Counted from the first letter of the stretch, positions 41,420 to 61,993 are shown. The stretch: 64,000 nt of DNA from an uncultured Gammaproteobacteria bacterium (GCA_964539545.1 CAZIJG010000004.1:8054-72053), one strand, 5' to 3'. Notes: a model not told the origin generated them from the letters alone. Numbers and translations: made by a program.

Positions 41420-41491
41420 TCCCGGGTGGCGCAGTGGTAGCGCAACTGGCTGTTAACCAGTGGGTCGTCGGTTCGAATCCGACCCCGGGAG
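41420..41491 (+). tRNA. tRNA-Asn (GTT), CCA not encoded; integration target
   Basis: Hand-folded: acceptor TCCCGGG/CCCGGGA, D arm GCGC..GCGC, anticodon arm ACTGG-CTGTTAA-CCAGT, T arm GTCGG-TTCGAAT-CCGAC, discriminator G. Confidence 0.9.
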
Positions 41492-41493
41492 CA
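41472..41493 (+). repeat. native att core (T-loop to 2 nt past discriminator) = template of all downstream core repeats
   Basis: TTCGAATCCGACCCCGGGAGCA, repeated in direct orientation at 48651, 50523, 53186 and 54316, with diverged copies elsewhere. Confidence 0.85.
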
Positions 41494-41496
41494 TTG

Positions 41497-41525
41497 AAAA
41501 AGACGAGTGAAAAACTCGTTTTTTC
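41497..41525 (+). terminator. terminator after tRNA-Asn
   Basis: ACGAGT/ACTCGT stem plus T6. Confidence 0.8.
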
Positions 41526-41531
41526 TTTTGT

Positions 41532-42644
41532 TTAAGGGGCGTTTAGAAGTTTTTTTGAACCGAAATTTGAAACCCCCAAATTATCGATTGTGACGCTATT
41601 GTGACGTACATTTATTTTTTGTGACGTTTCTAATGTCTGAATAGCGTTTCTCAGGGTGTGTTGACCGAGATGAGCATATCGCATAGTAGTCCTGATATCT
41701 GAATGCCCCATTAATTCCTTTATGGCGGCCATAGAGACACCTTTCTCTGCTAGACGTGATGCAAATGTATGTCGAAGCTTATGCCAGCCTATGTGGCGCA
41801 GATTAGCTTTATCGCAAATTGAGTTAATTGTGGTGCGTGAATATTCTGGTCTAAATCTTTCTTCGTCAGGACCTTTTAACACAAAATCTTTTCTAGGCGA
41901 TAAAGTTACTAGATGATCTAGCAAATCTTTGGTCATTGGCATGTAGCGAATACGGTTGCTCTTGGTAGTCCCTAATACTCCAGCGGAAAAGCTTTGACTA
42001 ATTGTAATCTGTTTTCTGTCAAAACTAATTCGTTCCCATTTTAGAGCCATTAATTCTCCAAGTCTCATGCCTGTATGCAGGGCTAAGAGTATGGCGGTAT
42101 AGTAATGACCGTGAGCATGGCTTAGTAATAGTTTAGATTCCGCTTCGTTTAGGTAATCGAATTCTGGAGGATTTTCTCTCAGTGGTTTAGTAATTGGAGC
42201 TTTTTCCAATGCTTCCCATTCAACAGCTGTCCGTAAACATTTCATTAATGTACCTACTTGAAGATTAACACTTCTAGGTTTGAGATGTTTTAATTGTTTA
42301 GCTTTAAATTCTTCAATATTTAGACTAGTTATTTCATCTATTCTTTTAGTGCCGAAATAGGGAACTAGAGCAGATCTCAAATCAGAAAGCCTACTTTTAA
42401 TTGCTGAGGGTTTGTTATTAACCTTTACGTAAGATTCGAACCACTTAGTAGAGAATTCTTTGAAGGTCGGTGTCTTTATTTTTGGTTTAGGTAATAACTC
42501 TTGTCCTCGGGCTAATCGTTGCCTAAGGAGTGCTTCAAATGCTTTTGCTCCGGCTCTGGAAATATCTGGACTAGGGAGCCGATATCTTATGCCTTTGAAG
42601 CTGAAGTCTACCCACCATTTATTTGAACGTTTAGTTACACTCAT
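41532..42644 (-). CDS. int: tyrosine site-specific integrase (phage integrase family)
   Basis: TGMRLGEL (Arg box), HKLRHTFAS (HxxR), GHSDIRTTMRYAHL (Tyr nucleophile); 3' end abuts tRNA-Asn and contains three TGTGACG motifs (41587-41626). Confidence 0.9.
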   Translation of the reverse strand: MSVTKRSNKWWVDFSFKGIRYRLPSPDISRAGAKAFEALLRQRLARGQELLPKPKIKTPTFKEFSTKWFESYVKVNNKPSAIKSRLSDLRSALVPYFGTKRIDEITSLNIEEFKAKQLKHLKPRSVNLQVGTLMKCLRTAVEWEALEKAPITKPLRENPPEFDYLNEAESKLLLSHAHGHYYTAILLALHTGMRLGELMALKWERISFDRKQITISQSFSAGVLGTTKSNRIRYMPMTKDLLDHLVTLSPRKDFVLKGPDEERFRPEYSRTTINSICDKANLRHIGWHKLRHTFASRLAEKGVSMAAIKELMGHSDIRTTMRYAHLGQHTLRNAIQTLETSQKINVRHNSVTIDNLGVSNFGSKKLLNAP

Positions 42645-42653
42645 AGCATATAT

Positions 42654-42851
42654 TTAAGTCATTGATTCAACACAATTTTTATCTAGAAAATCTAAGACAT
42701 CCGATTTCTTGAATCGAATATTATGACCAATTTTATAGAAGGGAATCATTCGCCGACTAATTAGACGATAAACAGAAGTTCTGGAAATACCAAGCAGTAT
42801 AGCCAGTTGGTCAGTGTTAAGAAATTCAATTGTATTTAAATCAATTACCAT
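42654..42851 (-). CDS. xis: excisionase / AlpA-like helix-turn-helix DNA-binding protein
   Basis: 65 aa; LNTDQLAILLGISRTSVYRLISRRMIPFYKIGHNIRFKKSDV; immediately upstream of int. Confidence 0.75.
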   Translation of the reverse strand: MVIDLNTIEFLNTDQLAILLGISRTSVYRLISRRMIPFYKIGHNIRFKKSDVLDFLDKNCVESMT

Positions 42852-42902
42852 TAAGTTTTAAGGAGCAATACAAGGACACAGGGGTCTGCGTCAGTCAATA
42901 TA

Positions 42903-43610
42903 TTACTCTATCATATCTTTTTCTTTATTGTCTACTTCAAATAGTTCATATTTTATAGAACCGTAATAACTTTGGAAGACTTTTTGAAATAGAAAATTGA
43001 AGTTTGGGCATTTAGATTTTATATCTAAAATGTTAGGAGAATGAAGAATAGTGGGCTTAGCTAAGTTACGAGAACAGAAATATTTTTTGTTATTGAAGTA
43101 TCTTTCATCACTCATATCTTTACCGATGTATTTAACAACGTACATGCCAATGTTTGTATGAGCGTCAATGCTATTTACTCTTATAAATCCGTGTCCCCAA
43201 ATTTGAGCTATTTTGTTTTGGTCGATGTAGTCAAGGTTTATTAGTATATGGTAGTGTACTGCACCACGTTTTTGGAACTCAGGCACGGCTATATATTTTA
43301 TGTTATCTTTTAAAACTTTTAATTTTCTTATAAAGGCTTTTAGTTCTTTGTTACATGATTTTAAATCAGTGCGATTTTCAGCAAAAGTTAAAGTTAAAAA
43401 TTTATTCATTTCTGGATTTGAGTTAATGCGCCATTTAATCTCTCGTCTACAGCGATATATAGCAAATTCGTTTAATTTTTTAGGCCCTTCTTGTGGTTTT
43501 CTTTTTTTTCTTTTTTTCTTGTTTCTTTTAGATCCAATCCTAATGCCAACTTTGTTTTTGTATACTTCAACTTTGTTACCAGTTATTATTATCTTTGTTC
43601 TGTATTCCAT
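42903..43610 (-). CDS. rep: rolling-circle replication initiator, HUH superfamily (pC194/pUB110 Rep_1-like)
   Basis: Motif I FLTLTF, motif II HUH (AVHYHILIN), motif III catalytic Tyr (YVVKYIGKD). Confidence 0.75.
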   Translation of the reverse strand: MEYRTKIIITGNKVEVYKNKVGIRIGSKRNKKKRKKRKPQEGPKKLNEFAIYRCRREIKWRINSNPEMNKFLTLTFAENRTDLKSCNKELKAFIRKLKVLKDNIKYIAVPEFQKRGAVHYHILINLDYIDQNKIAQIWGHGFIRVNSIDAHTNIGMYVVKYIGKDMSDERYFNNKKYFCSRNLAKPTILHSPNILDIKSKCPNFNFLFQKVFQSYYGSIKYELFEVDNKEKDMIE

Positions 43611-60369: not shown

Positions 60370-60398
60370 TTGACAAAAATATATCGACATGGTATGTT
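60370..60398 (+). promoter_or_regulatory. cassette promoter module copy 5
   Basis: TTGACA (60370-60375), 17 nt, TATGTT (60393-60398), then TTTTTTGATAC. Confidence 0.6.
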
Positions 60399-60447
60399 TT
60401 TTTGATACTTAATATATTATTTAACATTCAAAAAAGCGGAGGTAGTA

Positions 60448-61005
60448 ATGAATTGGTCAGTTTTTTTAATTGTAGTTCTTTTAAATTCTTTACTTTGCTC
60501 ACTTCAATACTTAGTAGAGCGAATAGATAAAACAAAAGGTAGAATTGTGCCACGACATTCTATTATTCCTGGAACAGACCAAAAATTTCTTTATTGGGAA
60601 GATTTTTATACTCAAACCTATGGAGATTTTTTTGGACTAGTATGGATAATGAATGGTTTTGCTCATTTATTAATAAAGGGGCAGATTACGAGTTTGGAGT
60701 GGTTTATTTTTATATTTTTTACTTTAGTTTCTATATTTATTTTCTTGTATTCAAATTTGAAATCAGGGCATAAACCAGACTGGGGATATCCATCTCAAGG
60801 CAGGATTAGTTGGGGTGGAATTACACATTTACCCTATTTTGGTAGCTTATTTGCTATGTCAATCCTGTGTTTAATAAATATTTTTAGTGGTGAAATAAGA
60901 GGAGTCTTACTTTGGACAACTTTAAGCGGCGGGTTTATTTATATAATCACCATAATCGTAGATATTAAATTAGGACATTTTGACTCAATCAAGAATTATA
61001 AATAA
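60448..61005 (+). CDS. hypothetical membrane protein
   Basis: 5-6 TM; SD GGAGG 7 nt upstream. Confidence 0.5.
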   Translation: MNWSVFLIVVLLNSLLCSLQYLVERIDKTKGRIVPRHSIIPGTDQKFLYWEDFYTQTYGDFFGLVWIMNGFAHLLIKGQITSLEWFIFIFFTLVSIFIFLYSNLKSGHKPDWGYPSQGRISWGGITHLPYFGSLFAMSILCLINIFSGEIRGVLLWTTLSGGFIYIITIIVDIKLGHFDSIKNYK

Positions 61006-61118
61006 GAATAATTCTGAAAAATAAAAGAATAAAAATATTATAAGGAAGTTTAATATTGAACTTCCTTTTTTCTTACTTAAAAGTCAATCTTAGTATATCA
61101 ATCTTATCAATATTGAAG

Positions 61119-61146
61119 TTTTGAAGTAAGTTCACTACCGAGAGCA
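61119..61146 (+). repeat. variant core X2
   Basis: TTTTGAAGTAAGTTCACTACCGAGAGCA, close to the X1 core at 57434-57462. Confidence 0.5.
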
Positions 61147-61245
61147 TCGTTCAAAAATGCTTACTTTATAGGTATTTTTGTGTATATTCTGGTTTAAATC
61201 CTTGTTTGGCACTTTACTATTATGGTATAATTTTTATATAAATCA

Positions 61246-61599
61246 ATGAATAAAAATATGGAAATTATAAAAAATAAAGAATGGATTAGAGGCAAGGAAT
61301 ATCGTAAGAGGATTTTGTTAGACAATTTCAGTAAAAATATTAATCTAATTGAAGATGTAATAATCCAGGCTCATGGAAGAGTTCCTTTACATTATCATGA
61401 TTTTACTGATGAAATTTTTTATATTGTTAAAAATTCAGCTGTTATGATTATTGATGATGAAAAATTTAAAGTTAGTGAAGGCGACATGATTTATGTGAAT
61501 AAAAACGAAAAACATGGTTTTGAAAATAAAAACGATTTAGAGCTAAAAATGATTGTTATGAAAATTAATTTTCAGAAGGGTGACTCCTATTTAAAATAG
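61246..61599 (+). CDS. cupin-domain protein
   Basis: HYHDFTDEIFYIV...EGDMIYVNKNEKHGFEN two-motif cupin pattern; TGgTATAAT at 61223-61231. Confidence 0.7.
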   Translation: MNKNMEIIKNKEWIRGKEYRKRILLDNFSKNINLIEDVIIQAHGRVPLHYHDFTDEIFYIVKNSAVMIIDDEKFKVSEGDMIYVNKNEKHGFENKNDLELKMIVMKINFQKGDSYLK

Positions 61600-61605
61600 C
61601 TCTAA

Positions 61606-61775
61606 CATAGTCCGTTCCCTCGAGCCAATACATTTTTGGTGCAGTAGACCGATATATATCGTTTAATGTTAGCCAAGAAGCAAAAAAGCATGACTCAGGT
61701 TATGTTTTTTTTGTTGTAATTAAATGGATAAGAAAGAATCGTAAATAAGAGGTATTGTGAGCTCGGATCCCATGG
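61606..61775 (+). repeat. variant junction unit X3
   Basis: CATAGTCCGTTCCCTCGAGCCA, then ~150 nt collinear with X1. Confidence 0.55.
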
Positions 61776-61993
61776 GAAGTAATTTAAAAGATTAGCATTT
61801 TGGATTTTTTAAATGAATAATGATGTAGGTTTGGGTTTTATTTAAAAAGGAGTAATTTGATATTATGTAGTAGTAGTTTTTATTTTTAGGCATGGTAATT
61901 GACAAAATATATTTATGGGTATACACTCATAATATAATAATTAATATATATCGTAATTATTGTTTGATGATTTTACGAAATATAAATAAATGT

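Follow-up and report, generated by a model that had tools for sequence, protein, structure and literature searches.

A tRNA-Asn-anchored array of integrase-less gene cassettes beside a single lambda-type integrase in a Patescibacteria genome

We analysed a 64,000-nt stretch of DNA (CAZIJG010000004.1:8054-72053, hereafter the window, numbered from its first letter) from a genome assigned to Patescibacteria (candidate phyla radiation, CPR), in which one tRNA-Asn gene is followed by a complete integrative element and then by about nine small gene modules separated by a conserved repeat. The final 22 nt of the tRNA gene (41472-41493) form the attachment (att) core on the attL side. As a first-pass annotation of this DNA had claimed, this 22-mer, TTCGAATCCGACCCCGGGAGCA, recurs in direct orientation, with exact copies at 41472, 48651, 50523 and 53186 and a copy matching at 21 of 22 positions at 54316, against an expectation of 0 in shuffled sequence. 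The genes for the integrase (Int), the excisionase (Xis) and an HUH replication initiator (Rep) are the sole mobility genes and lie on the minus strand beside the tRNA; every called cargo open reading frame (ORF) from 44915 to 61599 is on the plus strand. No paralogues were found among the cargo proteins, and tblastn detected no remnants of int, xis or rep in 44700-64000 (E>0.4), so that the uniform cargo orientation, the mutual dissimilarity of the cargo and the lone tRNA-proximal recombinase described earlier all stand. We consider it probable that the region is a tandem-accretion island of att-flanked modules comparable to cis-mobilizable elements (CIMEs), built by a lambda-type integrase that targets the segment from the T-loop to the 3' end of tRNA-Asn.

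The repeat that separates the modules reaches well beyond the tRNA fragment. Repeat search and alignment gave seven direct-orientation units of roughly 200-300 nt (starting at 48456, 50328, 52003, 52991, 54121, 56220 and 60153), all between 48.4 and 60.4 kb, with three degenerate junctions besides; seven copies with an arm of ~180 nt had also been counted at first sight. The arms are 85-97% identical in pairwise comparison over ~180 nt, the units thus differing from one another by 3-15%, and the similarity is not confined to the 22 nt of the tRNA. The arms of the units at 52991 and 56220 (junctions J4 and J6) are 97% identical, in keeping with an earlier estimate of about four differences between two units. 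When the units are anchored on the core, similarity rises from ~0.3 to at least 0.8 at the unit start, stays at 0.86-1.0 over most of the ~180 nt and drops after core nucleotide 8-9. Diverged cores lie at 52198, 56415, 58847 and 60348, the one at 58847 reading TTCGAATTGTATTCTCGGAGCA with 7 mismatches; the last three had been placed correctly, and the first starts at 52198 and not at 52190. Half cores are present near 48786 (annotated at 48785), 50659 and 53320, and a core remnant at 56811. The arm motif TTGTGACGCTATTGTGAC has 12 copies in the window, all on the plus strand and all within 41588-60223, where chance predicts 0, and it is absent from positions 1-41000.

We identify the unit as the attP/attR arm used by a family of lambda-type integrases. 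Paired TTGTGAC sites with 11-bp spacing lie ~140 nt upstream of every core; the native core and the three cores that we call type 1 below are each followed, after 60-95 nt, by a further pair. The pair is invariant in 33 units of other genomes, all of which were retrieved by searching with the TTGTGAC motif itself, and the layout of the P arm is conserved across these 33 distinct units, including those of subfamilies whose cores match other tRNAs. By their placement these pairs would be arm-type sites on the P and P' arms, distinct from the core and presumably bound by protein. Other identities of the unit were considered and rejected. Attachment by attC-like folding was rejected on single-strand folds and RNAalifold: on neither strand does the DNA fold better than its shuffled versions (z = -0.20 and -0.49), and the 33 units yield just a 5-bp inverted repeat around the arm sites with one covarying pair, which leaves intact the earlier view of the site as a long lambda-style arm plus tRNA core and not an attC hairpin. 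A known RNA was rejected on Rfam scans, which returned two tRNAs only at the gathering threshold and nothing at E<=0.1 over 47000-62000. A generic dispersed repeat (REP/MITE) was rejected on 0 copies in 1-41000 and on the context of the units of other genomes, which stand with an int gene, a tRNA or contig ends; the sole unit outside such a context is in L082. Viral contigs scanned for the arm motif gave 0 matches.

The integrase itself conforms to this picture. All 45 aligned homologues keep the catalytic residues R194, K228, H288, R291, H314 and Y323 without change. The AlphaFold model (pLDDT 84) has strands at 2-6, 9-16 and 19-24 and a helix at 30-46 (N-domain, pLDDT about 90), and Foldseek aligns the model over 350-369 columns to full-length lambda Int (1z1b/5j0n); the sequence match to Arm-DNA-bind_2 is weak (E = 0.04). 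The modelled three-domain architecture is that of a heterobivalent integrase, predicted to bind both arm and core sites. The classification by hidden Markov models (HMMs) that the first-pass annotation had proposed was run and places Int with the phage integrases (phrog_1, 236 bits). An IntI-clade integrase was rejected, as the scores lie far under the cut-offs of the integron-integrase models (61 bits for TIGR02249, cut-off 265; 31.6 for NF011946, cut-off 435) and the matches span residues 275-328 only. The native P' pair sits in the last codons of int, where TTGTGACGCTATTGTGAC encodes VRHNSVTI. The C-terminal tail of Int is predicted to be disordered (pLDDT<50), yet HNxVT is kept in homologues down to 43% identity; thus, the simplest reading is that a DNA-site constraint acts on this coding sequence, which would serve as both codons and binding site. 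The exact 18-mer TTGTGACGCTATTGTGAC survives in int genes of other phyla. Spread of the unit outside Patescibacteria was rejected as an account of the arm-motif matches there (Proteobacteria, Acidobacteria and others), which are partly chance and otherwise the conserved int 3' end encoding HNxVT.

Six of the junctions between modules fall into two types (Table 1). The type-1 junctions (J1, J2 and J4) keep every recognisable part of an attP, with a half core and a promoter ~113 nt past the core. In the type-2 junctions (J3, J6 and J9), core positions 1-8 have 0 mismatches and the next 14 positions have 5-6, and the arm together with the first 8 core nucleotides has 3-18 mismatches in 185, a contrast with the right half of the core that gives Fisher p = 4e-05 to 0.003. 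From this contrast, the left part (the arm) and the right part (the start of the next cassette) of type-2 junctions appear to have separate histories, split at the T-loop. Integrases that target tRNA genes are expected to exchange strands in the T-loop. T-stem-region attP sites are among the crossover classes described for Islander (PMC4383910). The half core and promoter of type-1 junctions resemble the diverged core and promoter of type-2 junctions, and a type-1 junction therefore looks like a type-2 junction with a short 'tRNA end–terminator–P'' segment inserted. A consensus scan predicts near-consensus TTGACA-N17/18-(TG)TATACT promoters within J3, J6, J8 and J9 and terminators after most cassettes.

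Table 1. Features of the tRNA-Asn locus, with positions in the window
Feature	Position	Strand	Evidence and details
tRNA-Asn(GTT)	41420-41493	+	ARAGORN (41420-41492); Rfam tRNA 71.8 bits; core search
P' arm of complete element	41494-41630	+	terminator hairpin, then TTGTGACGCTATTGTGAC 41588-41605, third TTGTGACG from 41620; sequence and motif search
Lambda-type tyrosine integrase, 370 aa	41532-42644	-	Pfam Phage_integrase 1.1e-30 and SAM_3; phrog_1 236 bits
Excisionase-type HTH protein (Xis/RDF), 65 aa	42654-42851	-	HTH_17 1.6e-13; TIGR01764 excisionase domain
HUH rolling-circle replication initiator, 235 aa	42903-43610	-	PF23343 1.5e-22; phrog_3419; intact motifs FLTLTF, HYH, YVVKYIGK
Two mobility-module ORFs of no assigned function, 79 aa and 238 aa	43576-44693	-	homologues adjoin rep in L086 and L063
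Module 1 cargo: 362-aa protein, PD-T7-4 (46046-46672), 134-aa protein	44915-47139	+	Pfam DUF4145; PADLOC
Truncated junction: first 64 nt of P arm (inverted-repeat module), two TTGTGAC sites, no core	47187-47250	+	nhmmer positions 5-67
Module 1b cargo: NERD nuclease-domain protein, 125-aa protein	47246-48436	+	Pfam NERD
J1 (type 1)	48473-48834	+	P arm 48473-48650, exact core 48651-48672, terminator, P' sites 48732-48753, half core ~48786-48800
Cassette 2 cargo: 116-aa, 78-aa, TspO, pyrimidine-dimer DNA glycosylase	48862-50322	+	Pfam
J2 (type 1)	50344-50706	+	P arm, exact core 50523-50544, terminator, P' sites 50604-50625, half core ~50659
Cassette 3 cargo: 381-aa protein, no family match	50820-51965	+	
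J3 (type 2)	52018-52252	+	P arm, diverged core 52198-52219, promoter TTGACA-N17-TATGCT 52224-52252
Cassette 4 cargo: 212-aa protein	52301-52939	+	
J4 (type 1)	53008-53369	+	P arm, exact core 53186-53207, terminator, P' sites 53267-53288, half core ~53320, promoter TGGTATAAT
Cassette 5 cargo: 232-aa protein	53403-54101	+	
J5	54136-54370	+	P arm, 21/22 core 54316-54337, own terminator hairpin
Cassette 6 cargo: DUF6653, CAAX-type protease, RibD_C reductase	54370-56105	+	Pfam
J6 (type 2)	56238-56470	+	P arm, diverged core 56415-56436, promoter TTGACA-N17-TGGTATACT (11/12 match)
Cassette 7 cargo: 82-aa protein	56474-56722	+	
J7 (degenerate)	56811-56960	+	core remnant, terminator, partial P' sites, type-2 promoter; without P arm
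Cassette 8 cargo: 109-aa, peptidase S51, 58-aa, DUF5680	57005-58748	+	Pfam
J8 (degenerate)	58786-58902	+	3' third of P arm, diverged core 58847-58868, promoter TTGACA-N18-TACACT
Cassette 9 cargo: 393-aa protein	58945-60126	+	
J9 (type 2)	60168-60398	+	P arm 85-89% identical to others, diverged core 60348-60369, promoter TTGACA-N17-TATGTT
Cassette 10 cargo: 185-aa protein; last module with recognisable upstream junction	60448-61067	+	terminator 61042-61067
Possible very degenerate last core and promoter, low confidence	61170-61235	+	sequence only

In module 1, the DUF4145 gene (46046-46672) matches PD-T7-4, an anti-phage system of one gene, over its full length (PADLOC, 287 bits). An internal core-like site might have explained a clean loss of int-xis-rep, but nothing convincing was seen in 44694-44914, where the complete element passes from mobility module to cargo. 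Tra or FtsK domains were not found among the ORFs. On the right side of the island, no unit was found past 60374, synteny with relatives is absent and the flank differs in every relative. The GC content of the array is 0.24-0.35, slightly AT-richer than the flanking 40 kb at 0.31-0.37. The GC skew is strongly positive across the window (0.03-0.34 over 1-64000), with its minimum of 0.03-0.08 only over the minus-strand int-xis-rep module. A 58-nt direct repeat of 71% identity lies upstream of the peptidase S51 gene (57541-57598) and upstream of a DUF5320 gene (61707-61764), and it may be a shared leader or regulatory element.

Comparison with relatives gives the repeat its place in a simple element. 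About 35 Int homologues, 63-71% identical, occur in metagenome-assembled genomes (MAGs) of Falkowbacteria and other Patescibacteria, and arm-motif scans of species-representative genomes and JGI metagenomes find the unit in dozens of Patescibacteria contigs. Among the relatives with available context, whose Int is 63-71% identical, the dnaG–rpoD–tRNA-Asn locus of L061, L063 and L030/L084 holds one int-bearing element of 5-7 kb that ends in a single homologous unit. The 3' segment of the tRNA is repeated at both ends of the element and the tRNA is regenerated in the window as well as in L061, L063 and L030. Across relatives the content of the array at tRNA-Asn varies, mostly one element with one unit; their unit is thus the attR of a single int-bearing element, and serial integration, which the first-pass annotation had named as the competing explanation, fits these comparative data better than its integron-like one. 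Cargo and int run in opposite directions in the relatives, where the cargo often looks defence-like (DndB, PIN, DpnII, HEPN), and the uniform orientation of cargo in the window follows from this element architecture together with oriented integration. Extra int-less cassettes of 0.6-2.3 kb, one or two per relative, recur downstream of an int-bearing element in L058/L059, L053 and L077, with two units each; in L053 the core matches tRNA-Ser and Int is 52% identical. L022/L078 have three junctions and two tiny cassettes after tRNA-Asn, and the 2 kb of array sequence there contains no integrase gene. Of the arrays seen, that of the window is by far the longest; its arms all belong to one subtype (85-97% identical), distinct from the arms of other genomes, and its Int is intact. 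'Solo' 64-nt arm modules were rejected as an independent mobile module, being mostly full P arms of diverged subfamilies in which the local alignment ended early.

Two relatives carry what look like traces of departed elements. The first junction after the tRNA in L022 is a hybrid P'/P arm that starts exactly at the TTGTGAC sites, which fits the loss of a whole element by deletion between P' and P sites. In L008 (JAQUAK010000001.1), the closest species-representative relative (rpoD 80% identical), tRNA-Asn is followed by a scar made of terminator, P' and half core, the segment that type-1 junctions of the window also contain. Both scars indicate that elements come and go at the tRNA-Asn site. 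The tRNA-Asn gene of L008 (7108-7423) has a group I intron in its anticodon loop (RF00028, 79.9 bits, 7130-7378), and ARAGORN missed the gene because of this interruption.

The independent assemblies L001/L103, L066, L065, L067 and L104 have the cassette order of the window at 99.4-100% identity; two or more of the independent assemblies, drawn from different samples, cover each junction to ~60.2 kb (J1-J8) with the same flanks, and L066 alone covers J9 and cassette 10. One variant, L098, is collinear with 53199-59621; upstream of this, its 3.6 kb of cargo are unrelated and defence-like, encoding proteins that resemble MazG, a DUF2075 ATPase and the nuclease Mrr, and end in a different, shorter arm type. 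The homology breaks at 53198/53199, inside the core 53186-53207, and divergence is 18% at the left junction of cassette 5, 4.3% in its gene, 1.2% in cassette 6 and 0% from 56437 on. Such a gradient fits recombination at or near att junctions. In a search for alternative cassette orders, exact-protein look-ups of four cargo proteins gave collinear contigs only, plus one contig with an insertion sequence (IS) inserted; cargo shared with other loci or arrays would point to cassette movement, and the only instance was a 47% CAAX-protease homologue in an unrelated context.

We propose the following course of events. The complete element at ~41494-48672 comprises Int, Xis, HUH Rep and cargo that includes the PD-T7-4 defence gene. 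Its attP consists of the ~180-nt P arm with a TTGTGAC pair framed by a short inverted repeat, the 22-nt core, which is identical to the 3' end of the tRNA, the terminator, and the P' sites overlapping the end of int. Integration regenerates the tRNA and leaves the P arm and core at the far end of the element, as the comparison with relatives shows. The roughly nine modules downstream (0.4-2.1 kb, 1-4 co-oriented genes each) have kept their att junctions without int, xis or rep and would be equivalents of CIMEs. A single Int with Xis could recombine any two directly repeated junctions; one or several modules would then be excised as circles and re-inserted at the tRNA or at another core, and deletions between direct repeats would strip modules or cut them short. 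Where the core has mutated, a module is probably fixed: type-1 cassettes may still be mobilizable, and type-2 cassettes may be fixed or insert only at non-tRNA cores. Mobility of individual cassettes is suggested by the complete attP-like junctions, by arms far better conserved than the core halves and by the break of L098 at the core. We favour tandem accretion because it is the most economical model. Its fixed points are the anatomy of the att sites, the type of the integrase, the relation of one int to one unit in relatives, the recurrence of int-less modules and the lack of mobility-gene remnants.

Several points weigh against this model. First, it does not account for the traceless loss of a 3.3-kb mobility module from all nine cassettes, and repeats bordering such a deletion were not found; should the cassettes have lacked an integrase from the start, the capture of cargo between constant ends is equally unexplained. 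Second, five other assemblies of near-identical strains share one cassette order, no circular-junction contigs were found when terminal overlaps were checked, and the break in L098 might reflect faulty joining within the repeat of ~135 nt that holds the terminator and P' sites. Third, in L082 (1-13165) a unit of the window type (95% identical to J6) stands together with a type-2 promoter and a cargo gene of 311 aa, and no tRNA lies within 13 kb; the neighbours of the unit are a glycosyltransferase/Wzy cluster and rplJ-rplL, a context that could reflect IS-mediated rearrangement, a chimeric contig or a secondary site.

The array may instead be a fossil record, in which sibling elements integrated serially at tRNA-Asn, their mobility genes being lost afterwards; the junctions would be inert scars, and the arms would be alike through recency or gene conversion. 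This is the less probable course, although one to be taken seriously: 4 of 10 junction cores have diverged at 5-7 of 22 positions, two junctions are truncated, the order of cassettes is identical in near-identical strains, L022 and L008 carry deletion scars, and degenerate remnants are found in tycheposon islands too (bioRxiv 10.1101/2020.12.28.424599). However, inert scars would have an arm and a core of the same age, yet the divergence of the two differs 4- to 20-fold and switches exactly at the T-loop. Nor do arms farther from the tRNA become less alike (J4 and J6 share 97% identity); three junctions keep all recognisable attP components, pseudogene traces of int, xis or rep are missing, and the L098 variant breaks at the core.

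At the other end stands the likeness to integrons that the first-pass annotation had noted. The attC sites of integrons are imperfect palindromes recombined as folded single strands, and their promoterless cassettes are expressed from Pc. The locus shares with integrons a divergent tyrosine recombinase and small one-directional cassettes with unrelated cargo, each ending in a conserved site, and int-less arrays in relatives recall their CALINs (clusters of attC sites without an integron integrase). Unlike integrons, it has a non-IntI integrase, a double-stranded arm with a tRNA core, cassettes with predicted promoters of their own, and a platform anchored in a tRNA gene with an integrase that is part of a mobile element with Xis and Rep. 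The likeness therefore holds for topology alone, and membership fails on the clade of the integrase, on site structure, with its lack of attC folding, and on the predicted promoter arrangement. It is unlikely, in our view, that a working integron analogue arose independently in Patescibacteria from a lambda-type integrase whose att sites derive from a tRNA; its int-less, single-operon cassettes, with ~200 nt of arm and core at one end and a promoter or P' segment at the other, would be excised and re-inserted individually in trans by the one pair of Int and Xis.

A stronger form of this idea, a dedicated integron-like capture platform, would make promoter-bearing int-less cassettes the primary mobile unit, routinely captured and shuffled by one integrase derived from the lambda type; we hold it to be very unlikely. 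One divergent integrase does stand beside about nine co-oriented cassettes of integron-cassette size with unrelated cargo; variable cargo lies between ends that are constant, ~200 nt on the right and a promoter or P' segment on the left; other lineages, the tRNA-Ser subfamily among them, show this architecture again, and the int-less L022 array resembles a CALIN. However, most relatives have one unit per int element, the integrase falls outside IntI and the site lacks the folding of a single-strand substrate, no cargo recurred at a second position or in a second one of the genomes compared, and no mechanism of cassette genesis is evident. Finally, that alternative single elements of different strains, or circular forms, were threaded through the shared att repeat into a false array is hardly credible even though many family contigs break at the tRNA or the unit and the repeats (200-330 nt) exceed typical k-mers, because unit differences of 3-15% make each junction resolvable and because the independent assemblies agree, J1-J8 each being spanned by at least two of L001/L103, L066, L065, L067, L098 and L104.

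The accretion model has precedents. In Dehalococcoides, a dozen repeats of 20 bp from ssrA mark the ssrA islands, many of which are without the integration module and were proposed to be CIMEs (PMC3146451). As in the window, these tandem islands lie downstream of one small-RNA gene, are bounded by ~20-bp repeats of its 3' end with conserved sequence upstream of each repeat, and have an integration module on the opposite strand beside attL (PMC3146451). They differ in a serine (CcrB-like) recombinase and a tmRNA gene target, and more than half of them keep the integration module (PMC3146451), whereas here a lambda-type tyrosine integrase acts with a ~180-nt arm, int is found in one of ~10 modules, and the modules are 0.4-2.1 kb. 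CIMEs are att-flanked elements without integration or transfer genes, beside a functional relative whose integrase can excise them alone or as a composite (PMC5704250). Like those of the ICESt1/ICESt3 accretion, the modules of the window keep att junctions without int, xis and rep beside an int-bearing element. CIMEs belong to conjugative elements of Firmicutes (streptococci), with usually one CIME per ICE (integrative conjugative element; PMC5704250), whereas the modules here, candidates for mobilisation, number nine in a stack, with an HUH Rep and no conjugation genes.

Tycheposons (bioRxiv 10.1101/2020.12.28.424599) share with the element a tRNA-targeting tyrosine integrase, a replication module, adaptive or defence cargo and a streamlined host without classical transfer, and their neighbours are separated only by partial tRNAs, with degenerate remnants and partial tRNAs in the islands. 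The parts of that preprint consulted describe pairs of int-bearing elements and diffuse remnants and no long int-less arrays with a 180-nt arm; the replication genes, compared by description, are of the polymerase/primase/helicase type where the window has an HUH Rep. AICEs (actinomycete integrative conjugative elements) of the pSAM2 type also have int-xis-rep with a rolling-circle Rep in a tRNA 3' end (PMC2440964). Unlike them, the element has no FtsK-like transfer gene, and its RepSA score is marginal (21.6 bits against a cut-off of 700). Long arrays are uncommon: Islander, which requires an integrase in each member, lists only 4 tandems of three or more among 3919 islands (PMC4383910).

Tandem accretion of site-specific elements is thus an already known process, and the locus is an extreme, integron-looking case of it. 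What is distinctive here is the number of modules (~10 with one integrase), the miniature cassettes (0.4-2.1 kb), the new element family and the host phylum. In the open-access literature searched, we found no description of integrative elements of this kind in CPR, consistent with what the first-pass annotation had supposed for the architecture. The element family is widespread in Falkowbacteria-like Patescibacteria. Its members have Int and Xis, and some of them an HUH Rep as well; they share a conserved ~200-nt attP, target tRNA-Asn or tRNA-Ser and in several cases carry defence-type cargo. Patescibacteria genomes are very small, and one tRNA gene can gather about ten small accessory-gene modules beside a single integrase. 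If the cassettes move individually, the locus would be a second, independent route to integron-like arrays, one that uses lambda-style sites in double-stranded DNA, and experiments could then address how such platforms originate. If the integron-analogue reading is true, tiny genomes would obtain a cassette-shuffling platform for gene capture anchored in tRNA genes. If the cassettes are immobile, the locus would still be an unusually clean record of accretion and decay.

Some further observations concern the relatives. A second, shorter P-arm subtype, with the core GGTTCTAAC(G/T)..CCAGCTCCCGGAGCA, occurs at L098:3560-3603, at L072:4842-4927 and in L024, and abuts cassette 5 in L098. On the long-read contig L063 (1-2000), which has a 64%-identical integrase at rpoD–tRNA-Asn, TonB-dependent receptor and Plug-domain proteins are encoded ~8 kb off; these are unexpected for Patescibacteria, and the contig may be chimeric. 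An IS30-like transposase gene (HTH_38) with the end CCTAGGTTCAACAAG lies inside the att core just past ..CCGAC(T/C)CCGG at L064:1136-1404 and L082:20-1075 (minus strand), in both cases with window-type arms. A similar IS end, CCTAAGTTCA, interrupts the core of L075, which has a different arm subtype, and the IS30-like element may target the palindromic CCCGGG part of the core.

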